Source: Escherichia coli
Lineage (GTDB): Bacteria > Pseudomonadota > Gammaproteobacteria > Enterobacterales > Enterobacteriaceae
Length of the DNA stretch: 64,000 nucleotides
Assembly (NCBI RefSeq): GCF_051903065.1
Contig: NZ_CP178438.1
Strand: one strand, 5' to 3'
Part shown: positions 2,761 to 22,100 of the stretch, in pieces
Position numbering within the stretch: position 1 is the first letter of the stretch
Layout: each line of letters starts with the position of its first letter
Made by a program: the position numbers and the translations under genes
The notes under the pieces: generated by a model
Told to the model about the DNA's origin: nothing
Seen by the model: only the letters and a program-made list of their open reading frames with translations
Database searches by the model: none

Positions 2761-5700
2761 GATTTCATCAAACCAACGCGCAGTATCTGGATGATGGTTT
2801 CCACAATACGGTTAACCTGATTCATTCCGGCACCAATTTCCCGGCAGGCCGTAAACAGCAGTGGTAGCAGACTTGTCTTAACGACTTTCTCAATGTCCTG
2901 GGGGTTCAGGGAGTTTTCTGCCACCGCTCTAACGATAATGCTGTCCACTTCAAAAGCCAGCTTCGTCCACTTATCCTGCACCTGAACGTCTTTTACCACA
3001 AAAACCTCAGGTAGCTCTTTTTTAAATACACCGTAATACGCCTGAGCATGCTTGTTTACCGCCAGTGCATCCGGGATATCGCTGAGCTTACGGGCTTCAA
3101 CCTGTTCTTCAAACTCACGGAATAAGAGGTACTGCTTAAGTGGATGGTCGAACAGTTTTTCAGCCTCTTCGATTGCCATACGCAGGAGTCTGGAAAAGGC
3201 CTCCTGAGCATACGGATCATCACGCAGCTCCTGCTCAATCATCTTCGTCACACGGGTTTTAATGATGTCGGTTTCATTGCGGGTTTTATTGTTGTCCCAC
3301 TCTTCGGGCTTTTCGCTCTTACCCATTTTACCGACTTCATACACGCCATCCGGTTCACGAACCTCAACGCCGGTGACATGCTTATCCAGCAGTTTTTTCA
3401 CCTGCTCGGCGTAGTCGTCATAATTGACCTGCTCTCCACTGACCTGCATCGCCCACTGGCGCAGGCTGGACATCTGTTTTACGGTTTCTTTATAGAGGTT
3501 TCGGTCTTGTTCCGTAAAGCTCTTGTCGGTGAAGAAGGTGGCGGACTGCAGTGCCACTTTCAGGCATCCGGCAAAGGCCGTTAACGCCTCGAAGAAATCA
3601 TCACGGGTTTTCTGATGGATATCGACCATCTCTCCGTCACGTTCTTCCATTTTAGGCACCAGTACCGCACGTAACTGCTCAGTATCATTTTTGTTTTTGA
3701 CACCAGCAAATATGGCCCACAGCTGGTTATACAGATGCGGCAGGCGCTTGTATTCAGAGCTCATGGCGCTGTACAGCCCGTCAATATCTTTGATGTCGTA
3801 TCCGCCCTGAGTTCGGGAGGCGAGGTCCTGATATTTGCCGATAGTCGTGTCCAGCTCAGCCAGAATACCGCGATAATCAATCAGCAGACCGAACTTTTTT
3901 AGTGGATGCAGTCGGTTCACCCGCGCAATCGCCTGGATAAGGTTGTGGGACTTAAGCGGCTTGTCGATATACAGCACGGTATTCTTCGGCTCATCAAACC
4001 CGGTGAGCAGTTTATCAACGACTATCAGCAATTTGAGCTTCTCATCGGTATCGAAACGACTGATGATATTGCGGGTATACACAGACTCATCCTGCGTGCC
4101 GACGTTATCTTTCCACCATTTCGTCACTTCCGGCAGTTTGCTTTCATCCACCTCAGTATTCCCTTCCCGGGTATCCGGCGGGCTGATAACTACAGCTGAC
4201 TCAAACAACCCGGCTTCATCAAGATACTTTTTATATTTGATGGCGGAAATCTTGCTGTCGCAGGCAAGCTGGCCTTTCAGCCCCTCATCAATATTCTTCG
4301 AGAAGTGCGTGGCGATATCGAGTGCGATCAGACGGATGCGATCATCTGCACTATAAACCTCACCTTTACGGGCATATTTACGCTTAAGGTCGGCTTTTTG
4401 CGCTTCGCTTAACCCATCGGTAATACGATCAAACCAGGCATCTATTGCCCGATCGTTAACCTCAAGGTCGGGAATACGTTCTTCATACAGCAAAGGTGTA
4501 ACGGCTTTATCTTCTACCGCTCGCTGCATGGTATAAGCGTGGACAATCGGTCCGAATTTATTGGTGGTCTTATCTTCTTTTAGCAATGGCGTACCAGTAA
4601 ATGCTACAAAGGCGGCGTTCGGCAGTGCCAGTTTCATTCGCACATGGTTCTCACCACCCTGGCTACGGTGTCCTTCATCAATCAGAACGATGATATCGGG
4701 GCTGGTATTGACGCATTCAGGAAGTTTTGTCGCTGAATTAAATTTCTGGATTAGGGTGAAAATGATGCGTTCTTTACCGGAGCCAATCTGTTTCGCCAGC
4801 ATCTGCCCGGATGTCGCCATTGCATTGGCTTTGTCTTTTTTCCCGGCCAACTCGCCGCCGGATGCAAAGGTACTGCTGAGCTGTTCTTCAAGATCGATAC
4901 GGTCCGTCACCACCACGATACGACACCGCTTCAGGCTGTCATGAAGGATCAGCGCCTTGCTGAGGAACACCATGGTGTACGATTTGCCAGAGCCGGTGGT
5001 ATGCCAGATAACACCACCTTCCCTGCCCCCATCGGGTCTGCGGGTACTGATGCGTTCCAGCAGTCTTTTAATCCCGAACACCTGCTGATAGCGGGCAACA
5101 ATTTTTCCGGTCTTTTTATCAAACAGGGTGAAGAAGCGGGTCATCTCCAGCAGACGTTCCGGCGAAAGCAGACTGATGAGCAGCTTATCCTGCCCGCTGA
5201 CAGCCAGTTCCCCCCCGGCGATTAACTGCTGATACCAGTTGAGATCGCCAACAGGACGATGCTCAAATAACGCATCAATTTGTTCAGTCGATAAAGGATG
5301 GTTGCGCAGGGCATACATCTGCGCATCGGTAATATCCTCTTCGCGCCATGCCGCCCAGAATTTCATTGGCGTATGGCATGTACCGTAGCGCCCGTCATGA
5401 CCGTTAATCGAAAGTAATAACTGGCTGTAGACAAACAGCTGCGGGATTTCATCGTTGAACTGGTTGCGGATACTCTGGGATATCCCCTCGTCAATGGTTG
5501 GCCCTTTCTTGCCATGACCAGCCGGGCTTTTCGCTTCAATAACAGCCAGCGGGATACCATTAACAAAGCAGACAATATCTGGCCTCCGGGTTTCAACACC
5601 ACCTGACCGCAATACCGTAAATTCTTCAGTAAAATGGAACTGGTTATTTTCCGGATGTTCCCAGTCGATCAGCGCAATGGTGGGGTTGACCTTCTTGCCA

Positions 5701-6044
5701 TCGACAAACTCCGTGACGGCGATACCGTAGAGCAGATGGTTATACATCCGCTCATTGGCTTTGAGCAGCCCTTCATTCAGCGCCGGAGAACAGACCTGTG
5801 ATATCAGGTTATCCAGTGCTTTTTCCGATAACTGGCAGGTTTTGCCACCCGCCATAAAGGAACGCTTCGACAGCTCTTCACGCAGAACCGGACGCAGCAC
5901 CACCTCATCCTGTTTATAGCCCCGGTAATCCATAATCTGTTTCGGAGATAAAAACGCCCAGCCGAGGCTGGTCAGTAACGTCAGTGCCGGAATTTTGGCG
6001 CTGTATTCTTCCTGGAATTTTGGCGTGTACGTCTGGTTCATCAT
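2757..6044 (-). CDS. hsdR: Type I restriction enzyme R subunit
   Basis: 1095-aa ORF with helicase motifs (GSGKS Walker A, DEGH box). Confidence 0.9.
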   Translation of the reverse strand: MMNQTYTPKFQEEYSAKIPALTLLTSLGWAFLSPKQIMDYRGYKQDEVVLRPVLREELSKRSFMAGGKTCQLSEKALDNLISQVCSPALNEGLLKANERMYNHLLYGIAVTEFVDGKKVNPTIALIDWEHPENNQFHFTEEFTVLRSGGVETRRPDIVCFVNGIPLAVIEAKSPAGHGKKGPTIDEGISQSIRNQFNDEIPQLFVYSQLLLSINGHDGRYGTCHTPMKFWAAWREEDITDAQMYALRNHPLSTEQIDALFEHRPVGDLNWYQQLIAGGELAVSGQDKLLISLLSPERLLEMTRFFTLFDKKTGKIVARYQQVFGIKRLLERISTRRPDGGREGGVIWHTTGSGKSYTMVFLSKALILHDSLKRCRIVVVTDRIDLEEQLSSTFASGGELAGKKDKANAMATSGQMLAKQIGSGKERIIFTLIQKFNSATKLPECVNTSPDIIVLIDEGHRSQGGENHVRMKLALPNAAFVAFTGTPLLKEDKTTNKFGPIVHAYTMQRAVEDKAVTPLLYEERIPDLEVNDRAIDAWFDRITDGLSEAQKADLKRKYARKGEVYSADDRIRLIALDIATHFSKNIDEGLKGQLACDSKISAIKYKKYLDEAGLFESAVVISPPDTREGNTEVDESKLPEVTKWWKDNVGTQDESVYTRNIISRFDTDEKLKLLIVVDKLLTGFDEPKNTVLYIDKPLKSHNLIQAIARVNRLHPLKKFGLLIDYRGILAELDTTIGKYQDLASRTQGGYDIKDIDGLYSAMSSEYKRLPHLYNQLWAIFAGVKNKNDTEQLRAVLVPKMEERDGEMVDIHQKTRDDFFEALTAFAGCLKVALQSATFFTDKSFTEQDRNLYKETVKQMSSLRQWAMQVSGEQVNYDDYAEQVKKLLDKHVTGVEVREPDGVYEVGKMGKSEKPEEWDNNKTRNETDIIKTRVTKMIEQELRDDPYAQEAFSRLLRMAIEEAEKLFDHPLKQYLLFREFEEQVEARKLSDIPDALAVNKHAQAYYGVFKKELPEVFVVKDVQVQDKWTKLAFEVDSIIVRAVAENSLNPQDIEKVVKTSLLPLLFTACREIGAGMNQVNRIVETIIQILRVGLMKS

Positions 6045-6093
6045 TAATCCTTTTCTTTCTGGCGCTACTCGCTACTGGTCACATGAAGATTCA

Positions 6094-6777
6094 TCAATGC
6101 AGACAGCACCTCTTAAATTTTTTACCGCTGCCACACGGACACGGGTCATTTCGCCCGGGCATGTTTTCTGCCCCCTTCACTGGAACAGGCCGGGATGATG
6201 CCTCTGACATTCTCACTGACAACCAGTACTGATAAAGTGCCAGTGCAGCAGGCTGAATAAGGGAAATACTTTTCTCAAACTGCTCTCCGGTCATTTTCTC
6301 AAGTACAGGAAAATTCTTCTCCACGCCATGAAGAGCGATCACTTCCAGAGAAGGCCGTAACTCACCGGGAAGACCAGACCAGTCATCCAGTGACTTTCCT
6401 TTCATATAACCAAAACACCACTCTTCCACAATGGTATATTTTTCCCCCTTTACCTCACGCTCATTGAAAATCGGTTCAAACTGTTCAGGGGCCTCATACA
6501 GGCAGCCAGCGATATCGTTCATATGCTGAAAACACAGCCCCACAAAACGCGTCATCTCTTTTTCGGTGGTCCAGCGAGGGTGGTAATCACCTCGCCCCCA
6601 GATAGCACTGAGCCAGGTATTAGGGGAAATCGTATTCGGGCCAGAGACAATCGCTGTCAGAAAGCCATCCAGCTCAGAGAAACAGAGCACAGAATCATCA
6701 TTGCCGTATTTCAGCAACACCTCTTCCAGCCAGTCGATTTCCCGGTCAATCAGCGGCCCGCTTTTCGTCAGTTTCAT
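6094..6777 (-). CDS. YecA-like UPF0149 protein with C-terminal SEC-C zinc motif, embedded between hsdS and hsdR
   Basis: 227 aa; C-terminal GRNDPCPCGSGKKFKRCC; start ATG overlaps hsdS stop (ATGA). Confidence 0.8.
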   Translation of the reverse strand: MKLTKSGPLIDREIDWLEEVLLKYGNDDSVLCFSELDGFLTAIVSGPNTISPNTWLSAIWGRGDYHPRWTTEKEMTRFVGLCFQHMNDIAGCLYEAPEQFEPIFNEREVKGEKYTIVEEWCFGYMKGKSLDDWSGLPGELRPSLEVIALHGVEKNFPVLEKMTGEQFEKSISLIQPAALALYQYWLSVRMSEASSRPVPVKGAENMPGRNDPCPCGSGKKFKRCCLH

Positions 6778-8012
6778 TCGGCAACCGCCTCATCGACCTT
6801 AACACGACGTTTGCCAGTCAGTAGCTGTTGCATCAGGGCTTTTTTCTCATCTCTCAGGCAGGCGAGTTTTTTCTCCAGCGTGGAGATTTCGGCATCGGCG
6901 ACGGACAGGACGGCGGCGATTTTTTGTTGTTCTCTTATACTGGGTAAGTCTAGTTCAAACTCTTTAACCATTCCGGCGTTTAGGTTGGACTGTGTACCTT
7001 GCTGGCCTTGTAGTTTTATTTTTTCTTTTAATGATGTAAGATAGAAATATAAAAACTCATAATTTAAACAATCTTTTGGTCTAATACCCAAGATTGCCTG
7101 CGAAGATGTTAAATTTACAGCAGCAATGCTGCATTCACCTATAGAAGCATACATAGCATAAAGAACCGAGTTTTTTGGATATATTCTTGCGGATGAACTG
7201 TTCAATCCTAATTCAGTCAGATATTTTTCAGTTGTAGCAATCCACTTTCCATTAGATGTCATATCAGAAATAGATACCCATGGGATATTCCCGCCATAAT
7301 ACTCTTCAACCGTTGATTTCGGAGTACCTCCACTGTTCATATCGGCTATCGCACCCAGTTTTACTCTCTTCCACTCCCCACTAAACCTCACCCCATTCTC
7401 ATCCAGCAAGCGTTTCTTCCCGGTAAGTAATTGCTGCATCAGGGCTTTTTTCTGCTGCTGACTATTGGCGAGCAGCTTTTCCGTCACTGAAATCGCGTTA
7501 TCCCAGGTTGACAAGATTTTGGCTATTTTCTTTTGTTCCGCCAGTGGGGGGAGTAATACAGGAAAACCGCAAACATCATCACGTGTAATATTAGGGTCTT
7601 TACGACTACTTGCCGCAAATTTCTTCCATAATTTTACATTCCCGTTTAAGTAATTCAGGATATATGCTGGTTCTGCTTTATCACGATCGAGTATAAGACC
7701 GGATAATGCTTGGTTTATTGCTGCCGGTATAGTGAGAAGTCCAGTTCTTCCGATCTGGTTAAAGCCTCCATACATCGCTACTAAAACAGTACCAACAGGA
7801 AATACAGAGCAAGATGTTTCTAAAAGGGCTGTGTCAGTAATTTTCTCATCAGTTGAGATAATTTCACCGTTATTTAGGTCTAATGTCTTTACCCATGGAG
7901 TACCAGCAGTAGAAAAATAACGCTCTCCCTCAGCCCTCAGCGGAGTAGATCCAGATTTAATTTTTGCTATGTCCGATAATTTGACATGTCTCCAGCCAGG
8001 TTTGAGCTTCAT
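6774..8012 (-). CDS. hsdS: Type I R-M specificity subunit
   Basis: Two target-recognition domains with repeated conserved spacer motif KKALMQQLLTGK(K/R)R. Confidence 0.85.
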   Translation of the reverse strand: MKLKPGWRHVKLSDIAKIKSGSTPLRAEGERYFSTAGTPWVKTLDLNNGEIISTDEKITDTALLETSCSVFPVGTVLVAMYGGFNQIGRTGLLTIPAAINQALSGLILDRDKAEPAYILNYLNGNVKLWKKFAASSRKDPNITRDDVCGFPVLLPPLAEQKKIAKILSTWDNAISVTEKLLANSQQQKKALMQQLLTGKKRLLDENGVRFSGEWKRVKLGAIADMNSGGTPKSTVEEYYGGNIPWVSISDMTSNGKWIATTEKYLTELGLNSSSARIYPKNSVLYAMYASIGECSIAAVNLTSSQAILGIRPKDCLNYEFLYFYLTSLKEKIKLQGQQGTQSNLNAGMVKEFELDLPSIREQQKIAAVLSVADAEISTLEKKLACLRDEKKALMQQLLTGKRRVKVDEAVAE

Positions 8013-9565
8013 AAGCTATCCTCTTGCATACTGAAGTTTTCTCTTTCACCATAACCCAACTCCTTCAGATAACCCGCCATCTCTGTTTCGAGTTTTGACA
8101 GTTCCACTTTCAATTGCTCACGTTCGGCACGCACAGCCAGCAAGTCAATCTCGTCTTCTTCCTCAAAGGTATCGACATAGCGCGGAATATTGAGGTTGTA
8201 ATCGTTGTCCTGAATTTCCTTCAGGCTGGCGAGATAGGCGTATTTCTCGACGTTATCGCCATCACGGTAGGTCTTGACGATTTTCTTAATGTTTTCTTCG
8301 CTAAGCTGGTTCTGGTTTTTACCTGCCTTGAATTCACGGCTGGCATCGATAAACAGCACCTTATCATCAACTTTCTGCTTTTTGAAAATCAGAATCGCAG
8401 CCGGAATCCCCGTACCGTAGAACAGTTTTTCCGGCAGACCAATTACCGCATCCAGCAAATTTTCGTCGATCAGTTTCTGGCGAATTTTACCTTCGCTGGA
8501 GCCACGGAAAAGCACACCGTGTGGCACAACTACGCCCATACGGCCAGTTCCCGGTTTCAGGGTTTCGATCATATGCGAGATAAAAGCGTAATCTCCTTTA
8601 GTCTTCGGCGGTACACCGCGACGAAAACGGCCAAACTTATCGTTCTCAGCCTCGTCATGGCCCCACTTATCCAGGCTGAACGGTGGGTTAGCGGTCACGA
8701 TATCAAACAGCATCAGGTCGCCATTTTTATCGAGCAGTTTCGGGTTACGAATGGTATCGCCCCACTCGATTTTATGGTTGTCTTCGCCGTGCAGGAACAT
8801 GTTCATTTTCGCCAGCGACCACGTGGAGCCAATCGCTTCCTGACCAAACAACGCATAATTACGGCTGTTATGTCCGGAGACAATTTTACGTCCGCACTTC
8901 ATCAATAACGAACCAGAGCCGCAGGCCGGATCGCAGATGGTATCACCCGGTTGCGGATCAAGCAGTTCAGCAATCAGGTCTGAAACTTCTGGTGGGGTAT
9001 AGAATTCCCCGGCTTTCTGCCCACCGCTGGCGGCAAAGTTTTTGATCAGATATTCGTAGGCATTACCGATAACGTCCAGCGTACCTACACGGCTTGGCTT
9101 CAGGTTGAGATCTTCACCGGCGAAGTCTTCCAGCAACTGACGCAGGATGGTGTTCTTCTGTTTTTCTTCACCCAAGCGGTCAGTGTTAAACGAAATATCC
9201 TGGAACACGCTTTTCCCGGCATCTTTCAGTTTGGTTCCGTTGGCTTCTTCGATTGCATGCAGAGCCTGATCGATACGCTCACCGTTACCCGGCTCATGGC
9301 GGCGTTCGTACAGCGCATAAAAGCTGGCACTTTTTGGCAGTACAAAACGCTCGTTGGCCATCATCGCTTCAATCAGTTCCGGCGCATCGCCATACTGTTC
9401 TTTGTATTCGTCATAGTGATCCTGCCAGACATCTGAAATGTACTTGAGGAACAGCATGGTAAGGATAAAGTCTTTATAGGTATCAGCACTGATGGTGCCA
9501 CGGAACGTATCACACGCGGCCCACAGGGCTTTGTTGATCGTGTCCTGACTGATTTTGTCGTTCAT
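8009..9565 (-). CDS. hsdM: Type I R-M N6-adenine DNA methyltransferase
   Basis: 518 aa; NPPF catalytic motif; AdoMet-binding DPACGSG; 4-bp overlap with hsdS. Confidence 0.9.
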   Translation of the reverse strand: MNDKISQDTINKALWAACDTFRGTISADTYKDFILTMLFLKYISDVWQDHYDEYKEQYGDAPELIEAMMANERFVLPKSASFYALYERRHEPGNGERIDQALHAIEEANGTKLKDAGKSVFQDISFNTDRLGEEKQKNTILRQLLEDFAGEDLNLKPSRVGTLDVIGNAYEYLIKNFAASGGQKAGEFYTPPEVSDLIAELLDPQPGDTICDPACGSGSLLMKCGRKIVSGHNSRNYALFGQEAIGSTWSLAKMNMFLHGEDNHKIEWGDTIRNPKLLDKNGDLMLFDIVTANPPFSLDKWGHDEAENDKFGRFRRGVPPKTKGDYAFISHMIETLKPGTGRMGVVVPHGVLFRGSSEGKIRQKLIDENLLDAVIGLPEKLFYGTGIPAAILIFKKQKVDDKVLFIDASREFKAGKNQNQLSEENIKKIVKTYRDGDNVEKYAYLASLKEIQDNDYNLNIPRYVDTFEEEDEIDLLAVRAEREQLKVELSKLETEMAGYLKELGYGERENFSMQEDSL

Positions 9566-9937
9566 GAATCATCCTGGTCTGAAGAAAAAGCTAGCGATGC
9601 AGGGCTTTGCATCTTAAAAATTGCGGTAAATGATACCGTAAGATGCCTCCCCTGACACGCCAATATCGCAGCATTCAGGTTTGCATCATCCCCGTAATAT
9701 CGACATGAGACAGACTGACACAACCTGGCTCGTCACTCGCTAAAAACCAATTATCTTAGTAAGATAGCATCCATATTAGCCATGGTGTAAAACTGCCGTT
9801 GGGGTAATGATGATCCATATATCACCCGTTCTGGTGTGTGGAGCTGACATGATCCATAATCGGCAACGTTGATGCCCTTTGATAGTAATGATGACCGTCA
9901 ATGTGATTCCCCTGCTGACTGGAGGTCTCCGGATAGA

Positions 9938-11104
9938 ATGAGTATTGCCAACTGCGCTATCGGCCCACTTTATGATGAGCAAATAAAAAAAACACTTATG
10001 TATGCTGACCATAAATTCAAGCGGCTAATGAATACACGAATGTCGTTACTCGAACATTTATCACCCCACTATGACTTATCTTCCATGTTCAGCTATGAGT
10101 TGGAGGGAAGAGTTTTTCGGATTAAATTGATCAAGCCTGAGATTAAATTATCTCGCCAGCAGTTGATCTTCTCCTCACTCTTTTTAGAGCATGATTTTCT
10201 AAAAGAATATAAAAAACACATCTCAAATACTCTACAAAAAACAATCAAACAGTGCATTAAAAAACACAAACAAAAAATCAAAATCGAGCCTTCTATTTTA
10301 GATTACATATCAGCGTCACCCCGCAATACGTCGAGTTATGTATTACATGAGATAGTTTTTGAATCTAAACATTGCGATGAAATTCGCAATATTAAAAATG
10401 ATATATTGCTTGATGAACTAACGTTGAATGGCCGGATCACTAACATTTCAAAATACATTAAAAATAGTCAAGATAAAATCGTCGAACATATAGAGTTCTG
10501 CACTCATAAATTTGTCAATATAAGTCGTAAGAACCGGCACATTTTCAACACCACCACAATATCTGGCAGAAAACCTAACATCACTGGTGTTTTACTTTGC
10601 CTTTCAGAATTGATAAGCAACCTGCATATTTACCCAACTGAAATTAATAATATAAGCAATGCCATAATATTAAGCATTGCATACTCTGTACTTCAACATC
10701 TTCAATCCGGAAGAGAAACAGAAAAAACCAAAACCTCTCCAGCACTGGATTTTATCCCCACCATCATCGCACCTCATGTTTTCTACCTGGCGAAACGCGA
10801 AAAATCCTCTCAATATAAATACATTGAAAAAGAATATCTTCTCGGCCAGTTACTTATATTTTTGATGTATAAAACAGTTTACTACTCGATTCATAGCATC
10901 AGGGTAAGCCGTAAGCATTTCTATAATGATATAAAACCAAAATTAGTGACACTAAAAAAAGAAAGCTTATTAAGCACCAATTTCATGAAAAATCGAAGAG
11001 AGATTAGTGGTGAAGTCTTTGGTGATGTTGGTAGTATTGAGGCTGATTTTCGAGAAATCAGTACACTGATTCATCGGCGGAAGGCATTATTTATTTCCTT
11101 TTAA
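9938..11104 (+). CDS. Hypothetical protein, AT-rich, Lys/Ile/Asn-rich, no recognised domain
   Basis: Long ORF (track 9869..11104); start at 9938 chosen where composition turns AT-rich; start uncertain. Confidence 0.45.
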   Translation: MSIANCAIGPLYDEQIKKTLMYADHKFKRLMNTRMSLLEHLSPHYDLSSMFSYELEGRVFRIKLIKPEIKLSRQQLIFSSLFLEHDFLKEYKKHISNTLQKTIKQCIKKHKQKIKIEPSILDYISASPRNTSSYVLHEIVFESKHCDEIRNIKNDILLDELTLNGRITNISKYIKNSQDKIVEHIEFCTHKFVNISRKNRHIFNTTTISGRKPNITGVLLCLSELISNLHIYPTEINNISNAIILSIAYSVLQHLQSGRETEKTKTSPALDFIPTIIAPHVFYLAKREKSSQYKYIEKEYLLGQLLIFLMYKTVYYSIHSIRVSRKHFYNDIKPKLVTLKKESLLSTNFMKNRREISGEVFGDVGSIEADFREISTLIHRRKALFISF

Positions 11105-11610
11105 CTTTAAAACGATAAAAACAAATGAGAGACTGAATAAATATCAGCCTCTCACATAGTTAATAAGTTTCAACTTTAATATCTGAGAAATCATTCTATC
11201 TGGGCCTTGTGGACATTAATCCTCCTGGCAACATACGACTCAAAGTTTCAGCCTTGTATAGCCATCATAAATAGTACAGGATTGGGTGCTGCTCGCATGT
11301 ATCATTCTGGTATTAATACTGATCATCAGGGGTAACTTGTATGTAATTTAAAAACCATCATATCTCAAATCTCACAATGCTCATATTTTAACCATAAAAA
11401 CTAACCGATTTACACCCGCCATATATTATCATAACTTATTGTATTTAAATGGCTATAAGCCTCTAACTCACTGATTACACCATTAAATTCAAGCCATATC
11501 CTTACGCAGATACAAGCTTGCCCCTGCTGCCATTCACGTTTTAGGATTACCTCGCTAACACGACATGCTACTTTTTAAATCAGTGTAATAATTCAAACGA
11601 GGATAAAATT

Positions 11611-12741
11611 ATGTTCGAGAAAATGAAAAACAATGTAACCCGTATACCGGGGAATTTAACAAAACTTAATCAATACCAAAAAGACATTGATCACCTGTCT
11701 AAACTATTTTCTGAACAGCAATTACTGGAACTAATGACGACTACCGAATCCGATCAAATATTGCAAATGAAGCCTGCTGTAGATATTCTTCATGTACTAT
11801 CTCCATCAGCATCTACTGCTAAGCATATCAATTTTTTTCAGCACGTCCCAGTGCTCGAACAATGGTTAAAAAAGGAGTGCACTGCCTTTAATTTACTGGC
11901 AGTACATTTCTATTCACAGCAATCCCGTAAAAATGTCATTCCGAAAGAAATCTGTATGCTACTGGATGCATTTATTAAAACTGAACTTTCATCTGCGGTT
12001 AATGGTAATAATAATGCCGAACTCCTTTCTTGTTTTCAAAACACGCTGGATAAAATGTGCAATACACTAACATTTATAGACCACACAGTTACGGAACAAT
12101 CAGGTCAAGTAGCAATGCTTGATTTCAGCGCAAAAATGCATGAATATACTGTTGAAATCAGGACCTTTTTGAAGTCTGAATACTGGCTAAACAAACTACC
12201 TAAGGATATTAATATTCCATCCATTGACCTATCCTGGCTTGTGTTTTGTTACTTTTGCTCTGAATATCTTTTTGTATTTATTCAAACAACGCTCAATACA
12301 ATGAAGGCAGGAAAAATCATTCGTGATAACTACCTTTATCATCCTAAAATGATTGCATTGATCATTTTATCTATGCTGCCTTATGAAGTCATTCATAACG
12401 ATGGATCACTGAGTGAGTTTAAAACGCCTTTAACCAGCCCTGATGAGTTCATAATCAAATCTATTTGCATTAAAGGTAAGCAAAACACTACAGGGCATAA
12501 AAAAGATATAGAACAATTGCTTCGTAAGACATATATCTATATTGCATTACTCTTAAACCCTGAGTGGGCACCATCTTCCAAGGAGTTGATTTCCTTTTTA
12601 TCAGGAAAGTCCACAGTGATAAGTGGTTCACTCAACTTCCAGTCAACCTCCAGTGGTCTGGGTGTTCAAACAAACAATATCACTCTTCTTAAGAATGAGG
12701 TTTACTTCGAAAAAATAGCGAACAAGATCATGAAACTGTAG
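11611..12741 (+). CDS. Hypothetical protein, AT-rich, no recognised domain
   Basis: 376-aa ORF with GAGGA RBS upstream of ATG. Confidence 0.5.
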   Translation: MFEKMKNNVTRIPGNLTKLNQYQKDIDHLSKLFSEQQLLELMTTTESDQILQMKPAVDILHVLSPSASTAKHINFFQHVPVLEQWLKKECTAFNLLAVHFYSQQSRKNVIPKEICMLLDAFIKTELSSAVNGNNNAELLSCFQNTLDKMCNTLTFIDHTVTEQSGQVAMLDFSAKMHEYTVEIRTFLKSEYWLNKLPKDINIPSIDLSWLVFCYFCSEYLFVFIQTTLNTMKAGKIIRDNYLYHPKMIALIILSMLPYEVIHNDGSLSEFKTPLTSPDEFIIKSICIKGKQNTTGHKKDIEQLLRKTYIYIALLLNPEWAPSSKELISFLSGKSTVISGSLNFQSTSSGLGVQTNNITLLKNEVYFEKIANKIMKL

Positions 12742-12884
12742 TTTCTTAATATAATGGCGACATGGAATTGTGTTGCCATTATATCCGAATCTGCGTTTTT
12801 TCACCTGATGAACTGTGAAAGCTGTAACTGGCAGACTATAACCTCACATCGTATTTTTCCAGTGTCATTTACAGGAGAAATACG

Positions 12885-14021
12885 ATGCCTATTCTGGATC
12901 TGCGTTTCAGCAACAAATCACTTCACCAACTTCTACATCCCCTCACGGGTTGTCAGGAATACCGTGATATTCACTGCCAAAACCTGCGTGCTCTGGTGTA
13001 TCCCAATCGGATCACGCTGGCCTTTCGTGCCACTATAAACAATCAGCGTATATATGAAACCCTGGGTCAGTTCCCTCAGCTCTGCGTTGAGGATGCCCGT
13101 CAGCATGTGATGAAACTGCTTGCTGATAAAAATCGTCTTGCGGTTCAGTCCCGTCGATTCACTGTGGAACAGGCCATCAATGACCTGTGGCTACCGGATT
13201 TGCAGTTGTATAAAAAGAGTCCTCAGTCAGAGTTGTCAAAACTCAACCTCTACGTTCGCCCGTTCTGGGGCAAGCGGCAACTTCGCGACATCACGGCAGG
13301 AGAACTAGAACAATATGCTGCTGGCTTACGGGAAAAATTACGTCCGTCAACAGTAAACCGTATCCTCGCAATATTGTCCAAAATATGCTCTCTGGCAGTA
13401 CGTGCTGGATGGATCACGCATTCCCCGATGTCACATGTCCGCTATCTGAAAGAAAATAACATTCGCTATCGCACACTGTCAGCGACAGAAATCCCGCGCT
13501 TTATTGACGCGGCAACAGCGCTGCAAACACCGGCAGCTGATTCTATATTGCTTGCTCTTTATACGGGGATGCGTATTGGTGAGGTATGTACCCTGAAATG
13601 GGAGTACTGGCACCCGGATATGCATCAACTCATACTGCCTGATACAAAGTCCGGACACCCTTTCACCTGCCCACTTGCACCTCCAGCCATTGCAGTTGTC
13701 CAGTGCCAGCAGGACCTGATGCTCAGCAAAACTTACATTTTTCCACAACTAACCGACAATGTCCGCCCTCTGGCATATCCGCGTGCAACCTTTGCCCGTA
13801 TTTGTCGGGATGCCAACATTGATAACCTGCGGATGCATGACCTGCGCCGTACCTTTGCCACCCGGGTACTACAGGCGACCGGGGATATTGCAATCGCTTC
13901 CCATCTGCTAAATCACCATTCACTCACGGCGACCCGTCGCTACGCTTTTCACAATGCAGCGACATCACACGCAGTGGTTTCTCAGGTCATAGAAAGTTAT
14001 GACACAAAAATGAACCTATGA
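12885..14021 (+). CDS. Tyrosine recombinase / phage-type integrase
   Basis: C-terminal catalytic motifs HDLRRTFAT and LNHHSLTATRRY; AGGAG RBS. Confidence 0.8.
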   Translation: MPILDLRFSNKSLHQLLHPLTGCQEYRDIHCQNLRALVYPNRITLAFRATINNQRIYETLGQFPQLCVEDARQHVMKLLADKNRLAVQSRRFTVEQAINDLWLPDLQLYKKSPQSELSKLNLYVRPFWGKRQLRDITAGELEQYAAGLREKLRPSTVNRILAILSKICSLAVRAGWITHSPMSHVRYLKENNIRYRTLSATEIPRFIDAATALQTPAADSILLALYTGMRIGEVCTLKWEYWHPDMHQLILPDTKSGHPFTCPLAPPAIAVVQCQQDLMLSKTYIFPQLTDNVRPLAYPRATFARICRDANIDNLRMHDLRRTFATRVLQATGDIAIASHLLNHHSLTATRRYAFHNAATSHAVVSQVIESYDTKMNL

Positions 14022-14163
14022 TCTGTGATTCGTGATTGATGCAACACTCGTTTAAGGACGGTATTGTCATTGCATGCTTCTGCAGGGCCCTGCATTAAGT
14101 CATCAAAGAATGTGGATTGATATTAAATCCGCGTGGTTTCTTCTTCTCTAAAACCGGAGGTTT

Positions 14164-14364
14164 ATGTATTTAACCATTAAGCAGTTTGCAGAAAGATTTA
14201 ATCTTTCCGCATCCACGGTTGCGTCAGATATATCGCGCAACCCAGGAAAACTCCCGCCCTTCATCAGAATTGGGCGGGCTATACGATTCTCTCTTGATGA
14301 TATTGTTGAGTGGGAAAATGCACATCGTCAAAACAAACTTAAAGGTGATATAAATGGTTACTAA
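14164..14364 (+). CDS. AlpA/Xis-like small HTH DNA-binding protein (putative excisionase)
   Basis: 66 aa, position downstream of integrase, GGAGG RBS. Confidence 0.6.
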   Translation: MYLTIKQFAERFNLSASTVASDISRNPGKLPPFIRIGRAIRFSLDDIVEWENAHRQNKLKGDINGY

Positions 14365-14410
14365 GAACACAGCAAATAATGCTAATAATGCACTGAACAT
14401 TCTTCCTGAA

Positions 14411-14419
14411 GCAGCAAAC
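14411..14419. repeat. 9-bp target-site duplication gcagcaaac (left copy; right copy at 15477..15485)
   Basis: Identical 9-mers directly flank the IS903-like element. Confidence 0.85.
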
Positions 14420-15476
14420 GGCTTTGTTGAATAAATCGAACTTTTGCTGAGTTGAAGGATCAGATCACGTATCTTCCCGACAACGCAGACCGTTCCGTGG
14501 CAAAGCAAAAGTTCAAAATCACCAACTGGCCCACCTACAATAAAGCCCTCATCAACCGTGGCTCCATAACTTTCTGGCTGGATGATGAAGCTATTCAGGC
14601 CTGGTATGAGTCAGCAACACCTTCTTCACGAGGCAGACCTCAGCGCTATTCTGACCTTGCCATCACGACTGTGCTGGTCATTAAACGCGTATTCAGGCTG
14701 ACCCTGCGCGCTGCGCAGGGCTTTATTGATTCCATTTTTTCTCTGATGAACGTTCCGCTACGCTGCCCGGATTACAGCTGTGTCAGCAGGCGGGCAAAGT
14801 CGGTTAATGTCAGTTTCAAAACGCCCACCCGGGGTGAAATCGCACACCTGGTAATTGATTCCACCGGGCTGAAGGTCTTCGGTGAAGGCGAGTGGAAAGT
14901 CAAAAAGCATGGCCAGGAACGCCGCCGTATCTGGCGTAAGCTGCATCTCGCCGTTGACAGTAAAACACATGAAATCATCTGCGCTGACCTGTCGCTGAAC
15001 AACGTTACGGACTCAGAGGCCTTCCCCGGGTTAATCCGGCAAACCCACCGGAAAATCAGGTCAGCCGCCGCCGATGGCGCTTACGATACCCGGCTATGTC
15101 ACGATGAACTGCGGCGTAAGAAAATCAGCGCGCTTATCCCTCCCCGAAAAGGTGCGGGTTACTGGCCCGGTGAATATGCAGACCGTAACCGTGCAGTGGC
15201 TAATCAGCGAATGACCGGGAGTAATGCGCGGTGGAAATGGACAACAGATTACAACCGTCGCTCGATAGCGGAAACGGCGATGTACCGGGTAAAACAGCTG
15301 TTCGGGGGTTCACTGACACTGCGTGACTACGATGGTCAGGTTGCAGAGGCTATGGCCCTGGTACGAGCGCTGAACAAAATGACGAAAGCAGGTATGCCTG
15401 AAAGCGTGCGTATTGCCTGAAAACACAACCCGCTACGGGGGAGACTTACCCGAAATCTGATTTATTCAACAAAGCC
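14420..15476 (+). mobile_element. IS903-like element (IS5 family), 1057 bp with terminal inverted repeats
   Basis: Terminal IRs ggctttgttgaataaatcg / cagatttattcaacaaagcc; transposase ORF; 9-bp flanking duplications. Confidence 0.85.
14452..15420 (+). CDS. IS5-family (IS903 group) DDE transposase
   Basis: ORF inside the IS; N-terminus QKFKITNWPTYNKALINRGSITFWLD; true start may be internal. Confidence 0.85.
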   Translation: MKDQITYLPDNADRSVAKQKFKITNWPTYNKALINRGSITFWLDDEAIQAWYESATPSSRGRPQRYSDLAITTVLVIKRVFRLTLRAAQGFIDSIFSLMNVPLRCPDYSCVSRRAKSVNVSFKTPTRGEIAHLVIDSTGLKVFGEGEWKVKKHGQERRRIWRKLHLAVDSKTHEIICADLSLNNVTDSEAFPGLIRQTHRKIRSAAADGAYDTRLCHDELRRKKISALIPPRKGAGYWPGEYADRNRAVANQRMTGSNARWKWTTDYNRRSIAETAMYRVKQLFGGSLTLRDYDGQVAEAMALVRALNKMTKAGMPESVRIA

Positions 15477-16065
15477 GCAGCAAACACAGCTGTAGACAAC
15501 GATGAAAAATATCTGTCCTTTGCATTAGTTCTCGCTATCACGATTATGGACAACTTAGTAAAGCTCATCGGCACAGATGGCTTCGTACTTTATACCTACA
15601 CCCTGCAGGACACGGCTACTGCTCGTGCTGTTTTTAATGAATTAGCCAGGCGTCTCAAAAATTTCAATCGTCAGGAGGAGGTCTACACCACCGATTCCCT
15701 CACCTTTCGAATGAAATACATTTACGGTGTTACCCTGTTCGAACATGATAGTAAATCTATCCTTAACCTCTTTGATAAGAAGGGTTATCCGGTATTGAGT
15801 GAATCAGGAGAACCCGGTTCTCTTGATGATATGTATCTTGACATTCAAGCCCGATTACATGGCGGCTACGCCTCAAAAAAGTTTCTTCATTTACATGAAC
15901 ATTGTCTGTTATCTGCACACGTTACCCCGTCTGTGGAAAAGACGCAACGCGGTATCCTGATTAAAGTAGGCAGGAAACTCGTTTCCTTTATCCATGTAGA
16001 TGATGAATCACACAAAACCGATATTTTCAAATCTGTAGTAAATGTTATTAAATCTTGATTCTTTA

Positions 16066-16093
16066 TGCCGGGACACAGCTCCCGGCATTTTTT
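16066..16093 (+). terminator. Hairpin plus T-tract just upstream of the piPolB start
   Basis: tgccggga-cacagc-tcccggca followed by tttttt. Confidence 0.5.
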
Positions 16094-16104
16094 CGGAGTT
16101 AACT

Positions 16105-18705
16105 ATGAGCAATAATTTGCAGGACATCCTCGCTGCCGCCTCGGGGTATCAGTCCGTGACTTCAGAGCCAGCGTTCAATCGTAAAAGACCTAAAACGCTT
16201 GATGATTATCCTGTGATACCACCTGCATCAAAAAAAGTATCTGTTATTTCAAGTGACCTGACACTCCATATCGGTTTTGATACCGAATATGTTTTCAACC
16301 CTGAAACACGACAGAATGATATTCTGTCATATCAGAGTTATGTTGTCTTACCCGATAATACAGGTATATCGAACATTATCTATCCACCTGACTCACAGAA
16401 AAAATCCCGGCTGTCTTTTAAGGAATTTCTCTGTCAAACGATTACACCGCTTCTTGAAACGGGTGTGATTACAAAATGGCCCGGTATTATTAATATATAT
16501 GCGCATTTCATTCGTGCGGATATCGCCTCCTTTGCCAATTTCTGGTCAGACTACAAAATTCTTCTGAAAGGAATACGCGGTACTGTCAGCAGCTTCAAAA
16601 ATCGTTACGGTATCGATTTTGATGAACAGCAGGAACGTCGCGTAAAGACTGAACAGATAATGTTTGACAAACGAACTTCCCCTCCGCGTTGCAGTAACGT
16701 AGCTTTCATCGATACACTGCTTATCACTCCCGGGGGTATGGGTCTGGCTGAATGTGGTGAATTACTGGGTCTTCCCAAACTCACCATTCCTGCACCTTAT
16801 TCCATAACCAATATGCGTGAATATCTTCTGGGCGACAGAGCAGGGTTTGAAGCCTATGCTCTGCGGGATGCCGAGATTGCGGTTCGTTATGCTTTACAGG
16901 TTCGCAATTTTTGCGCCCGGGAGCTGATGATTGATCGTGTCCCCGCCACCATCGGGGCGATGGCAGTTTCACGGTTCACCAAAACACTTAAAGAAAACAA
17001 TATGTCTCCTGAAGTCTGCCTTGGGACACACATTAAAACCCGTGAACTCTGGCTCACGGAGAAACAGGCATTCCGGACGATTAAAAACCCCGCCAGTGTT
17101 CCTTCAAGAGAGTTGTTTGAAACGTTCCCGATCAACTGTTACCACGGCGGACGCAATGAGTGTTTTATGATGGGGGTTACACCGTCTGATCACTGGTATG
17201 ACTACGATCTGGCTGGAGCGTATACCACCGGGCTATTAGATATCCTCACACCCGATTACGGGAACATCCGCCTCAGTAAAAATCCGGACGATTACTGTGG
17301 GCATGTAATGGGATTTGCGCTTGTCACATTTCGGTTCCCGGAATCAGTTCCCTATCCCAGCCTGCCGGTTCGGACCGATCAATATGGGTTATTCTTTCCA
17401 TTAAGTGGCGAATCATGGGCAACGGCACCTGAAATCGAACTTGCTCTGTCGCTCGGGGCAGAGATGACGATCCATAATGGGATCATCGTCCCCTGGATCT
17501 GTGACACCTCCCCACATAACAGCGAATCAACATCGGTGTTTCTTCCCTTTGTTCAACAGGTCCGTGAGAACCGTAATCGCCATATTAAAGGTTCTCTGGA
17601 GGAGAAATTCTGGAAAGAAATTGGCAACTCGCTTTATGGCAAACTTGCTCAGGGCCTTCGCGCCAAAACCGCCTTTGATACTGCCCGTGGATTAAACAGA
17701 TCCCTCCCACCATCATCGGTTACTCAGCCATTCTTTGCTGCGCATGTGACGGGATTTATCCGCGCCGTTGTCGGGGAACTCATGAATGCTTTGCCTTCTG
17801 ATTCATCGGTTGTCAGCGTCACAACCGATGGTTTTTTGACAAATTGCCCACTTGACAAGATAAACATGAGCGGTCCACTGTCTTCCCGCTTCCAGTCGCT
17901 GTGCGATATTGTTGATCCGGGTTCATCAATGTTGACATGTAAGCATGAGGTCAGCCAGCTTATCGCCATGAAAACCCGGGGGCAGTTAACCTATAGAGCT
18001 ATTCAGGGAAAACCTGTTGTTCATGCCAGGGCTGGCGTCAAACCTCCTGCCGATATTCCACGCAGTGACTATAACGACTATATGGTAGATCTTTACCTTA
18101 ATCGTTTACCCGGTCAGACGTTATCCCGAAGTACGTTGATATCAACGCGTGAGATGTGGCTCTCGGAAAGCGATCTGGTATCCCGGGAACAGGATATCCG
18201 TCTTAATCTGGAATTCGATTTCAAACGCCAGCCCGTACAGCCCGCCATGAATGAAGGGCATTTACTGATGTTTTCCCGCCCGTGGGATAATATGGAAGAG
18301 GCTCTGCAGCAACGCTCTCTTTTCGACGACTGGCGGCAAACGCATACACTGAAGACCCTGGCTGACTGGGATGACTGGTGTGATTTTCTCTATTGCCGGA
18401 CGGTGTTTTCTGATATGAAACTAAAAGTCGGAAGCAAACGTAGTGATGATATTTTAGTCAGACTATTTCTCCGGGCGCTGACTCAGTGCCAATGGGGGCT
18501 GATGCTGAAAGATAAAAAAAGTTATTCCTGTAAAGAGGTTGCTGAATGGCTGACGTCAGAAGGCTATTCAGTAACGGTGACTGATGTAAAAAATGCGGTA
18601 AGAGCAAAAATACCCCAAATGAAATTTAGTTCTGTAACACCGCGAATGAAGTCACTGATGGATATCATAGCCCGTAAATATCCGACATTCTGTCTTCCAG
18701 TCTGA
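16105..18705 (+). CDS. Family-B DNA polymerase of the primer-independent (piPolB) type
   Basis: Exo I FDTEY, Exo III YALRD, motif B NSLYGKL, motif C VTTDG, and KTRG in place of KxY; start taken at MSNNLQ after GGAG. Confidence 0.8.
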   Translation: MSNNLQDILAAASGYQSVTSEPAFNRKRPKTLDDYPVIPPASKKVSVISSDLTLHIGFDTEYVFNPETRQNDILSYQSYVVLPDNTGISNIIYPPDSQKKSRLSFKEFLCQTITPLLETGVITKWPGIINIYAHFIRADIASFANFWSDYKILLKGIRGTVSSFKNRYGIDFDEQQERRVKTEQIMFDKRTSPPRCSNVAFIDTLLITPGGMGLAECGELLGLPKLTIPAPYSITNMREYLLGDRAGFEAYALRDAEIAVRYALQVRNFCARELMIDRVPATIGAMAVSRFTKTLKENNMSPEVCLGTHIKTRELWLTEKQAFRTIKNPASVPSRELFETFPINCYHGGRNECFMMGVTPSDHWYDYDLAGAYTTGLLDILTPDYGNIRLSKNPDDYCGHVMGFALVTFRFPESVPYPSLPVRTDQYGLFFPLSGESWATAPEIELALSLGAEMTIHNGIIVPWICDTSPHNSESTSVFLPFVQQVRENRNRHIKGSLEEKFWKEIGNSLYGKLAQGLRAKTAFDTARGLNRSLPPSSVTQPFFAAHVTGFIRAVVGELMNALPSDSSVVSVTTDGFLTNCPLDKINMSGPLSSRFQSLCDIVDPGSSMLTCKHEVSQLIAMKTRGQLTYRAIQGKPVVHARAGVKPPADIPRSDYNDYMVDLYLNRLPGQTLSRSTLISTREMWLSESDLVSREQDIRLNLEFDFKRQPVQPAMNEGHLLMFSRPWDNMEEALQQRSLFDDWRQTHTLKTLADWDDWCDFLYCRTVFSDMKLKVGSKRSDDILVRLFLRALTQCQWGLMLKDKKSYSCKEVAEWLTSEGYSVTVTDVKNAVRAKIPQMKFSSVTPRMKSLMDIIARKYPTFCLPV

Positions 18706-18753
18706 TAACCGTTAAATCTCCCCCAACTCCTTTAACAGAAGTTGGGGGCTTAA

Positions 18754-19080
18754 TCACAGGCAATCGGCATCAAAACAGTGAAATAACTGCCGCGCGTCAG
18801 GATGGCCATTTACATGATAGATCCGCATGGCATGACAGGTGATACTCTGGAGATTAGCCGCCAGCCTTTTCCCCATATTCACCAGTATGCCGTGTGGTAT
18901 TTTACTGCTTGTACTGTTTACTGTCAGAGTAAAACAATTTGTTTCAACGCTGACCTCAATAAAATCATTTCCAAATAATGTACCGACAACCTGCCTGATT
19001 GTTTCTTCATAATCTGTCAGATCAATGACATCACGCCATCTCGCATTTACGAGTTGATACTTTCTGATATGTAAATACAT
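18754..19080 (-). CDS. Hypothetical protein (108 aa)
   Basis: ORF with AAAGGTGG RBS. Confidence 0.45.
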   Translation of the reverse strand: MYLHIRKYQLVNARWRDVIDLTDYEETIRQVVGTLFGNDFIEVSVETNCFTLTVNSTSSKIPHGILVNMGKRLAANLQSITCHAMRIYHVNGHPDARQLFHCFDADCL

Positions 19081-19299
19081 AGAACCACCTTTATGTTATT
19101 TCAACTAATATGATGTTCTCCGATATTATGAAAATATTAATCATCATTGTAATTGCTGATAACCTCTCTAACCTTCGGATCTTACGTTCCCCCCTGCCTC
19201 TCCGACTTGATGGCAAAAGTGCATGGTCAAATATGCAGCAAAAACATGTCATGTACAGGTCAGGATAATAATTATCACCCTGAACTTAAAAATACACAT

Positions 19300-19410
19300 G
19301 GACAGGATGAGTCCACATGTTATTCGATGATTCCAGCAATGTTTTAATATATTGATAATTAATGAGTTAATTTTTTTCTCCGTCACAGTAAAAGTGGACT
19401 CATCCTGTCC
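19300..19410. repeat. Perfect 17-bp inverted repeat pair (19300..19316 and 19394..19410) around a 77-bp AT-rich spacer, upstream of the WYL regulator gene
   Basis: ggacaggatgagtccac and its exact reverse complement gtggactcatcctgtcc. Confidence 0.7.
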
Positions 19411-19459
19411 GTTACTTTGCTGAAAATATCCTCTTCGCTGGCATTAACCGGATAAACGA

Positions 19460-20362: not shown

Positions 20363-20423
20363 TGACACGGATAATATAATTTTCATTAAGTGCTATTTTT
20401 ATAAGCTAAAAAATGGAGTTACC

Positions 20424-21242: not shown

Positions 21243-21261
21243 TTAAAAAAAGGTTGCATTA

Positions 21262-21300
21262 TAACGGGAGTGTATATTTACTCCCGTTAAGTTTCATATT
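21262..21300. terminator. Stem-loop between convergent hydrolase and small HTH genes
   Basis: taacgggag-loop-ctcccgtta, T-rich downstream. Confidence 0.45.
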
Positions 21301-21372
21301 TTATAGAATTGATATGGGGTGATGCTGCCAACTTACTGATTTAGTGTATGATGGTGTTTTTGAGGTGCTCCA

Positions 21373-21648
21373 GTGGCTTCTGTTTCTATCAGCTGTCCCT
21401 CCTGTTCAGCTACTGAAGGCGTGGTGCGTAACGGTAAAAGTACTGCCGGACATCAGCGCTATCTCTGCTCTCACTGCCGTAAAACATGGCAACTGCAGTT
21501 CACTTACACCGCTTCTCAACCCGGTACGCACCAGAAAATCATTGATATGGCCATGAATGGCGTTGGATGCCGGGCAACCGCCCGCATTATGAGCGTTGGC
21601 CTCAACACGATTTTCCGCCATTTAAAAAACTCAGGCCGCAGTCGGTAA
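21373..21648 (+). CDS. insA: IS1 InsA
   Basis: 91-aa ORF. Confidence 0.85.
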
Positions 21649-22070: not shown

Positions 22071-22100
22071 GTTGGAGTCATTACCTTGATATGGATTCGA

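Follow-up and report, generated by a model that had tools for sequence, protein, structure and literature searches.

What two large, AT-rich genes do between a restriction-modification (R-M) operon and an integrase gene, and to which of these neighbours they belong, is the question raised by a 64,000-nucleotide stretch of the Escherichia coli contig NZ_CP178438.1 (RefSeq assembly GCF_051903065.1), hereafter the window. Both genes lie on the plus strand between hsdM (8009..9565, minus strand) and a tyrosine recombinase gene (12885..14021, plus strand). They had been located correctly by an earlier reading of the letters alone (the original prediction), which took them, from their place next to an R-M system in a mobile element, for defence or addiction cargo. 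The two open reading frames (ORFs) are:

9938..11104, plus strand: ORF1, 388 aa, orphan family, predicted to be mostly helical; selection estimated as dN/dS, start fixed by homologue alignment
11611..12741, plus strand: ORF2, 376 aa, allele class A of an all-alpha orphan family, in the slot directly upstream of the IntP2 integrase gene

It is very probable that these are real orphan genes which fill a single bounded slot of a pipolin (i.e. an integrative island encoding its own DNA polymerase, piPolB), and that deep allele classes exist in that slot. That ORF1 and ORF2 are self-contained, moron-like proteins of genetic conflict, acting in defence or exclusion, is a more tentative reading, to which a probability of roughly 35–40% is given here.

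ORF1 and ORF2 are real protein-coding genes under purifying selection. Stop codons would make up ~7% of random codons at this base composition (by our own arithmetic), and open frames of 376–388 codons are therefore vanishingly unlikely to arise by chance. As originally predicted, the region is considerably more AT-rich than its surroundings (34–36% GC versus about 50%): GC is 34.4% in ORF1, 35.8% in ORF2 and 34.8% in the 506-bp spacer (GC3 0.35 and 0.36 for ORF1 and ORF2), compared to 48.9% in hsdM and 49.9% in both the integrase gene and the chromosomal flank. Ile, Leu, Lys and Ser are abundant in both proteins, so that the described richness in Lys and Ile holds, while that in Asn is only mild (5–7%). 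The strong ribosome-binding site noticed for ORF2 is a Shine-Dalgarno sequence GAGGA (11599–11603), 7 nt 5' of the ATG. The start of ORF1, which had been called uncertain, can be placed at 9938 because every homologue at 45–68% identity begins at the equivalent position, with the residues MSI; a Shine-Dalgarno GGAGG lies 12 nt 5' of this ATG. The alternative start given by RefSeq, at 9872, has no Shine-Dalgarno sequence and would add 22 unconserved residues.

In a survey of 5426 complete E. coli genomes, piPolB was found in 281–295, ORF1 in 248–269 and ORF2 in 233–250 genomes, always on the chromosome, and the whole 3.3-kb ORF1–ORF2 block was intact in 233. About 4–5% of complete E. coli genomes carry the two genes. 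These observations bear on the possibility that ORF1 and ORF2 are leftover foreign genes without a current role, sitting in silenced and slowly decaying AT-rich DNA. Such decay would agree with the very low GC, with the existence of frameshifted or split copies, with the lack of a promoter in a consensus scan and with the lack of any detectable function. However, dN/dS against other alleles is 0.15–0.34 for both genes, comparable to IntP2 and piPolB, full-length frames are kept at 31–69% identity across many genera, both termini carry strongly conserved motifs, and some 85% of E. coli pipolins have the genes intact, all of which makes decay extremely improbable.

The locus itself is a pipolin of E. 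coli, integrated at tRNA-Leu, as is apparent from piPolB, two integrases, DUF2787 and a WYL-like regulator, which match the published pipolin architecture. An E. coli chromosome record in RefSeq matches the window at 100% identity from the cargo genes to tRNA-Leu, pgsA and uvrC, and the island (~36 kb) is inserted at tRNA-Leu, adjoining pgsA-uvrC. Starting at the cargo end, it contains Hhe, two DUF262 genes, the type I R-M operon, ORF1, ORF2 and the first integrase, followed by an excisionase-like helix-turn-helix (HTH) gene, an orphan, the family-B DNA polymerase, the WYL-like regulator, DUF726, DUF2787, two further orphans and the second integrase. The features of the core that matter here are:

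12885..14021, plus strand: IntP2-type tyrosine recombinase (Xer-like NCBIfam matches; Phage_integrase Pfam labels in relatives; named after the nomenclature of PMC11551731)
14164..14364, plus strand: HTH_17 excisionase-like gene, the next gene after IntP2
16042..18705, plus strand: piPolB, primer-independent family-B DNA polymerase, the pipolin hallmark (RefSeq start 16104)
22630..23064, minus strand: DUF2787 gene, adjoining the second copy of the 26-bp element discussed below
26699..26785, minus strand: tRNA-Leu(taa), the integration site, on the attR side of the island

The polymerase gene has the RefSeq product name 'DNA polymerase type-B family protein', matches PHROG DNA polymerases and encodes a protein 66–97% identical to the polymerases of related loci. 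Integration at a tRNA with terminal direct repeats is equally evident, since repeats of 300 nt occur at 1342–1641 and 36432–36731 of a longer record (L001), the left terminal repeat lying outside the window. By annotation and Pfam labels, the gammaproteobacterial pipolin core is represented by an IntSXT-type integrase, IntP2 with its excisionase, DUF2787 and the WYL-type regulator. Pipolins are described as bimodular: the core is small and close to the tRNA, and the cargo, in which defence genes abound, lies distally (PMC7385651, PMC11551731). About one fifth of the genes in Enterobacterales pipolins are devoted to defence (PMC11551731). The predicted mobile-element defence setting thus stands, in the form of a pipolin with Hhe, two DUF262 genes and type I R-M; the proposed link to R-M does not, as the neighbourhoods of ORF2 in other elements make clear that this adjacency is incidental and that ORF2 stays by IntP2 beside other cargo too.

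Loci were read in species-representative genomes, other assemblies and metagenomes, and about 20 of them reach the integrase gene; the named sources are E. coli, Citrobacter koseri, C. amalonaticus, Intestinirhabdus, Edwardsiella, Serratia, Hafnia, Enterobacter, Buttiauxella and a contig with an NCBI-labelled Phytobacter protein. Metagenome contigs included, each locus long enough to contain the integrase gene has a gene of the ORF2 family ~145–300 bp upstream of IntP2 and on the same strand, and wherever the contigs extend, HTH_17, an orphan and piPolB come next. The cargo on the other side is usually type I R-M; in Serratia and one E. coli element it consists of UvrD/PD-(D/E)XK, an N6_N4 methylase and ResIII. 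Because the position holds whatever the cargo, ORF2 goes with the IntP2 edge of the core, not with hsdM. ORF1 and ORF2 are moreover oriented divergently from hsdM, and the consistent co-occurrence and co-transcription with hsdR, hsdM and hsdS that would mark an accessory subunit of type I R-M were not found.

ORF1 is the more restricted of the two genes. In the neighbourhoods read, it was found only beside class-A ORF2 (in E. coli, Citrobacter, Intestinirhabdus, Edwardsiella and the Phytobacter-type locus), and Salmonella also has both proteins, whereas in all other classes ORF2 occurs alone. Conservation of the pair as a unit, the lack of which was to count against the original prediction, is therefore confined to class A. 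One pipolin-like island has DUF927 in place of piPolB, and there a lone ORF1 homologue (45% identity) precedes an IntP2-like integrase; since it fills the position of ORF2, the ORF1 and ORF2 families are positional equivalents. This island (locus L017, Logan ERR1891491 contig, 5450–10385) also has DUF2787, WYL-like and orf108-like genes and two integrases.

The same neighbourhoods speak to the idea that the two genes make up one defence or addiction module with a functional tie to type I R-M next door. ORF1 and ORF2 do adjoin hsdM in most E. coli pipolins, they are kept together in class-A elements of several genera, and a Klebsiella plasmid has the R-M module together with the first 94 ORF2 codons. 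The latter is an IS1-cut fragment, however, and ORF2 occurs without ORF1 in five of six classes as well as beside non-type-I cargo. R-M proteins are 96–99% identical between elements whose ORF2 share only 36–43%. Furthermore, two genes of similar size (388 and 376 aa), 506 bp apart and divergent from hsdM, are an unusual layout for toxin and antitoxin, all the more so with a spacer that varies from 286 to 506 bp with indels and with ORF2 alone in most classes. The terminator that ORF2 has for itself is likewise at odds with a toxin-antitoxin pair or a closely coupled operon of two genes, and no PADLOC match was obtained. Coupling to R-M is thus largely refuted by synteny and must be regarded as very unlikely.

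ORF2 is the divergence outlier among the 12 core genes compared in pipolin lineage 3. Between the Serratia and Enterobacter elements, which are of one pipolin lineage, ORF2 is 41% identical while 11 other core genes are 74–98% identical; between Hafnia and Enterobacter it is 42%, with IntP2 at 97% and the HTH protein at 90%, and between two E. coli elements 32%, with IntP2 at 90% and piPolB at 87%. At least six allele classes can be told apart (A, B1, B2, C, D and a plasmid/metagenome type), with 31–48% identity between classes and 68–100% within a class, compared to 69–99% for the flanking core genes. The class is tied neither to the type of cargo nor to the core lineage. Within the protein, the N-terminal third and residues ~240–340 are best conserved and residues ~100–200 least. 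In accordance with this, close class-A alleles give a pN/pS of 0.8–1.4 in residues 91–180 and of 0–0.13 in residues 271–360, the elevated central value resting on very few substitutions (Nd 5–12, Sd 1–4). Residues 181–270 (window 12151–12420) differ from three class-A alleles by a synonymous divergence of 0.35–0.48, versus less than 0.1 in the flanks; a mosaic segment of this kind, as left by an imported patch, points to recombination inside ORF2.

The combination of conserved ends, a variable middle, diverged alleles in a fixed position and mosaicism resembles what is seen for the target-recognition domains of hsdS in type I R-M. In fact, the neighbouring hsdS has the same pattern, being 35–50% identical between elements beside an hsdM that is 97–99% identical. 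ORF2 nevertheless differs from HsdS in that it has no sequence or fold relationship to it, lies outside the hsd operon and persists without hsd. The R-M cargo to which hsdS belongs was delimited with the 100%-identical RefSeq record, NCBIfam and the Pfam labels in related loci:

2005..9565, minus strand: type I R-M cargo module
8009..9565, minus strand: hsdM
6774..8012, minus strand: hsdS
6094..6777, minus strand: YecA-like UPF0149/SEC-C gene
2757..6044, minus strand: hsdR
2005..2760, minus strand: M48/YgjP-like peptidase gene

The hsdM, hsdR, YecA and M48 proteins are 89–99% identical from E. coli to Edwardsiella, Hafnia and Buttiauxella, hsdS being the variable exception. In some elements (L007, L018) a cold-shock-domain gene is added to the module.

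ORF1 and ORF2 fill a single, sharply bounded variable slot, with a 26-bp element as its left and the leader of IntP2 as its right border. On the left, homology between allele classes stops at 9809–9811, at the 3' end of the 26-bp element. The signals that lie within the slot or form its borders, together with the distant second copy of the 26-bp element, are:

9784..9809, plus strand: 26-bp element copy 1, GGTGTAAAACTGCCGTTGGGGTAATG (chance expectation 0)
22414..22439, plus strand: 26-bp element copy 2, with 2 mismatches, just 3' of the DUF2787 gene
11370..11610, plus strand: conserved upstream region of class-A ORF2, from an alignment of eight class-A spacers including Edwardsiella
12749..12784, plus strand: terminator-like hairpin of ORF2 with 14-nt arms and an 8-nt loop, directly 3' of the stop codon
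12800..12887, plus strand: IntP2 leader, the right border of the slot, starting ...ATGATGAACTGTGAAA, aligned across the sampled ORF2 classes

The hairpin behind ORF2 has a predicted folding energy of −19.2 kcal/mol (z = −4.4) and is followed, 12 nt downstream, by a short U-run (TTTTTT). In Edwardsiella, a hairpin of different sequence (with compensatory changes) occupies the same position, again followed by a U-run. From these sequence signals, ORF2 is predicted to be an independent transcription unit with its own terminator, and IntP2 to have a leader of its own. Within this leader, a second hairpin (12847–12887) pairs the Shine-Dalgarno GGAG and the AUG of the integrase gene, at −22 kcal/mol (z = −6.1) in the window and −22.2 kcal/mol (z = −5.9) in the Enterobacter element, and a weaker form is present in Edwardsiella, which suggests that RNA structure keeps the translation of the IntP2 integrase off. 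The spacer between ORF1 and ORF2 (506 bp in the window, 286–506 bp across elements, with indels) has a variable first part of ~260 bp (11105–11369), with indels, and a last part of ~240 bp that is conserved even in Edwardsiella. A terminator-like hairpin on the minus strand 3' of ORF1 is deleted in several elements. An Rfam scan of the spacers gave no real match to an RNA gene, and no iterons or other repeated sites were found in them.

The 26-bp element contains two half-sites, GGTGTAA and GGGGTAA, 17 bp apart. Its two copies lie 12.6 kb apart in the same orientation and bracket ORF1 and ORF2, IntP2, the excisionase, piPolB and the WYL gene. Irrespective of the cargo, 19 loci have copy 1 a short way 5' of ORF1 or ORF2, and it matches as a 26-mer with 0–3 substitutions in 18 of these, the Phytobacter-type locus having a 1-bp shift; the element is thus nearly invariant across lineages whose proteins are only ~70% identical. 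A 24-mer of it was found on 30 metagenome contigs (L024–L053), in the slot-upstream context in 27 and as copy 2 in the other 3. The two-copy arrangement exists in two pipolin lineages, and the position of copy 2 is shared by the lineage-3 elements. On Klebsiella IncFIB plasmids, the 26-bp element occurs together with the R-M module and a 94-codon ORF2 stump cut by IS1.

Two copies in the same orientation could be taken for an inner att site of IntP2, and this candidate was examined. A chimeric 'empty site' query against the 5426 E. coli genomes retrieved only strain I4 (L023, NZ_CP195978.1, 9040–9780), in which the deletion (window 9932..22296) is imprecise, since both 26-bp copies are kept and it ends 117 bp before copy 2. 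No breaks at copy 2 were present among the genomes sampled, the predicted circle junction between the copies gave 0 metagenome matches, all 30 metagenome occurrences are of the two native contexts, and a comparison of the E. coli with the Citrobacter element shows no fall in identity at copy 2. The truncations in loci L039 and L044 are IS1-mediated, at 9860. As all five tests were negative, the att-site idea is unsupported, with the proviso that assemblies alone are not decisive. The element may rather serve as an operator or anchor homologous exchange. Strain I4 keeps the cargo, DUF2787 and IntSXT and is a piPolB-less island remnant.

As to what the proteins are, the motif search by eye in the original prediction had come up empty, and profile and structure searches agree with it. 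The two proteins are true orphans: ORF1, ORF2, their alignment profiles and distant members gave nothing above noise in Pfam, NCBIfam, PHROGs, PADLOC and PDB sequence profiles, and fold searches in PDB, AFDB and BFVD gave no match. Matches to housekeeping or phage structural families, which would have spoken against the proposed cargo role, were not among the results either. The relatives of ORF2 form 61 clusters, all from Enterobacterales and all at E < 1e-76, the twilight zone being empty; ORF1 has 13 clusters, likewise all Enterobacterales, and its profile retrieved only its own family from 1.84 billion representative proteins. No phage or plasmid homologues were found, save the IS1-truncated ORF2 fragment on Klebsiella plasmids.

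Several candidate assignments were tried and dropped. The AbiJ N-terminal domain 4 (PF18863), a helical domain of an abortive-infection protein and the only defence-flavoured match, aligned with ORF1 residues 88–237 at E = 0.05, with only one of seven family members at E ≤ 0.1, and is regarded as noise. A HEPN assignment fails on the Rx4-6H matches, which are unconserved among homologues. A membrane location was considered for ORF2, of which the single hydrophobic helix is below transmembrane strength and has charged residues in other classes. Nor are ORF1 and ORF2 paralogues, to judge from BLASTP (E = 0.56) and hhalign (probability 0.2–2.4%, for whole proteins and halves). Both families do have an invariant G[KR]x(1-2)NxTG motif followed by a helix (GRKPNITG at ORF1 210–217, GKQNTTG at ORF2 289–295), at non-equivalent positions and with a similarity that has no statistical support, and their predicted N-terminal topology is also alike.

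The AF2 model of ORF1 is unusable (pLDDT 41.9). For the model of ORF2, Foldseek gave a single non-family match of appreciable probability, A0A2T5DWI5 in AFDB, a 371-aa protein of Vibrio splendidus (probability 0.87, E = 0.2, TM 0.28, with a nearly full-length alignment). Vibrio species carry pipolins, and on the basis of this model comparison A0A2T5DWI5 could be a candidate distant counterpart of ORF2. A scan of IMG/VR with the IntP2 alignment, aimed at Vibrio and Aeromonas pipolins, gave no loci.

Following these results, the preferred reading is that ORF1 and ORF2 are conflict proteins. They would be cytoplasmic, non-enzymatic helical proteins, carried as accessory genes and apart from type I R-M, with a role either in anti-phage or anti-mobile-element defence or in the exclusion of rival elements, other pipolins included. 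In ORF2, the conserved N-terminal (residues ~1–100) and C-terminal (~240–340) parts would form a scaffold, the fast-changing central helices (~100–200) would set the recognition specificity, and class switching by recombination would keep several specificities circulating. A conflict protein is what one would expect given the own terminator, the foreign composition, the diverged alleles, the variable centre and the defence-rich island. Like phage morons, ORF2 combines a terminator of its own (the hairpin at 12749–12784) with a base composition distinct from its neighbours (34–36% versus about 50% GC). The likeness extends to the 2022 work of Rousset et al., which reportedly found hotspots of defence genes beside the integrase genes of P2-like prophages and P4-like satellites: in each case an accessory gene with its own terminator and low GC lies beside a P2-type integrase and varies between similar elements. 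The P2 and P4 hotspots differ in holding unrelated and mostly recognisable defence systems, whereas the pipolin slot always holds one orphan family and no promoter was found in it.

A number of observations weigh against this reading. True defence hotspots usually hold unrelated systems, while the slot always holds a homologue, as would be the case for an element-essential gene. No match to ORF1, ORF2 or eight distant members was obtained with the PADLOC-DB v2 models, including the PDC and HEC candidate models; the sole signal was PDC-M36B at E = 0.039, no matched stretch of which passes by itself. Walker A, HExxH and PD-(D/E)xK are absent from both proteins, which have no catalytic, membrane or nucleotide-binding motif. 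A consensus scan of the plus strand upstream of ORF1 and ORF2 found no sigma-70 promoter, and H-NS may silence AT-rich DNA of this kind. Broken copies occur, of ORF2 in loci L007 and L019 and of ORF1 in L010, and the central pN/pS of ORF2 depends, as said, on small counts. Finally, the orphan upstream of piPolB also diverges fast between lineages (31–47% identity), and fast evolution alone is therefore no proof of a role in conflict.

Several of these points lead to another view, namely that ORF2 (and ORF1 by position) is an accessory of the pipolin life cycle and a partner of IntP2 and the excisionase, or of piPolB, acting either as a recombination regulator or architectural factor at the junction of core and cargo or in replication control, its divergence tracking partners or DNA sites. 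The synteny with IntP2 is invariant in all loci that extend to the integrase, regardless of cargo, and nothing unrelated was ever seen in the slot. In a different island, an ORF1 homologue is placed equivalently, beside an IntP2-like integrase and the replication-type DUF927 gene, and the conserved 26-bp element with its two GG(T/G)GTAA half-sites lies just upstream of the pipolin slot. In both models, moreover, the N-terminal helix-helix-helix-hairpin could be a winged-helix DNA-binding domain. On the other hand, the ORF2 class changes independently of IntP2, the excisionase and piPolB (IntP2 97% and HTH 90% identical where ORF2 is 42%), ORF2 appears to be a separate transcription unit with its own terminator, there is no similarity to families of recombination directionality factors, Rep proteins or regulators, the spacers have no iterons, and disrupted ORF2 copies persist in otherwise intact elements. 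On balance, a life-cycle role seems somewhat unlikely, yet it is the main rival of the conflict reading.

A further rival reading is that ORF1 and ORF2 are counter-defence or establishment proteins that would shield the pipolin, or the DNA made by piPolB, from host or rival immunity on entry, with classes matched to host defences. Hypervariability, discrete classes and a variable centre form the same signature as for the preferred reading, the proteins would be non-enzymatic and helical like many inhibitors, and allele classes are common to several host genera. At 376–388 aa, however, they are large compared to known anti-defence inhibitors (general knowledge), no similar viral protein turned up in BFVD or PHROGs, and homologues are absent from phages and amount to a fragment in plasmids. 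This reading is unlikely. An extension of the conflict reading sees the slot as a dedicated allele-switching locus for a new single-protein immunity or exclusion determinant (a two-protein one, with ORF1, in class A), of which the central helices would define the target and the 26-bp element would be the site at which slot or cargo modules pass between pipolins and plasmids; this is rather doubtful.

Other parts of the window add observations on the pipolin core itself. A frameshifted IS5-family transposase gene (14452–15420) separates the excisionase-like gene from the orphan upstream of piPolB, and this orphan (15546–16058) is 170 aa long in the window compared to 200–220 aa in other elements. 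Given the IS5 insertion and the shortened orphan, the core copy in the window may be damaged. The module at 22630–26457 has a history of its own: IntSXT and a 246-aa gene are 92–97% identical where piPolB is 71% (compared with L003, L011, L024 and L032), while DUF2787 and its two orphan neighbours are only 71–85% identical between the E. coli and Citrobacter elements, though piPolB is 97%.

Part of what is described here has been reported before. The pipolin, its nature as a defence island and the presence of orphan genes are already published (Flament-Simon et al. 2020, PMC7385651; Mateo-Caceres & Redrejo-Rodriguez 2024, PMC11551731). Several unnamed hypothetical genes without an HHpred match are listed for 64–93% of E. 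coli pipolins (PMC7385651, Table S3), and the core is said to hold 'several orphan proteins' (PMC11551731). The published orphans lie in the same element, at the same tRNA-Leu site and in the same gene order as in the window, and ORF1 and ORF2 are almost certainly among them. The portions of the two papers that were read do not describe the place of ORF2 at the IntP2 edge, the bounded slot, the deep allele classes, the limitation of ORF1 to one class or its stand-alone homologue in a piPolB-less island. A literature search by the RefSeq accessions of the proteins gave no paper.

For the biology of these elements, the first consequence is a correction, as it would be natural to assume that ORF1 and ORF2 belong to the neighbouring restriction system, and they do not. 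The 26-bp element, in turn, flags the exact boundary at which pipolin modules differ. Pipolins have recently been recognised as widespread defence islands, and within them the ORF2 family now becomes a specific, testable candidate. Depending on which reading is true, it would either be a protein of a new kind, conferring immunity or exclusion with a specificity that can be swapped, or act as a rapidly evolving factor in the control of an element that replicates itself.

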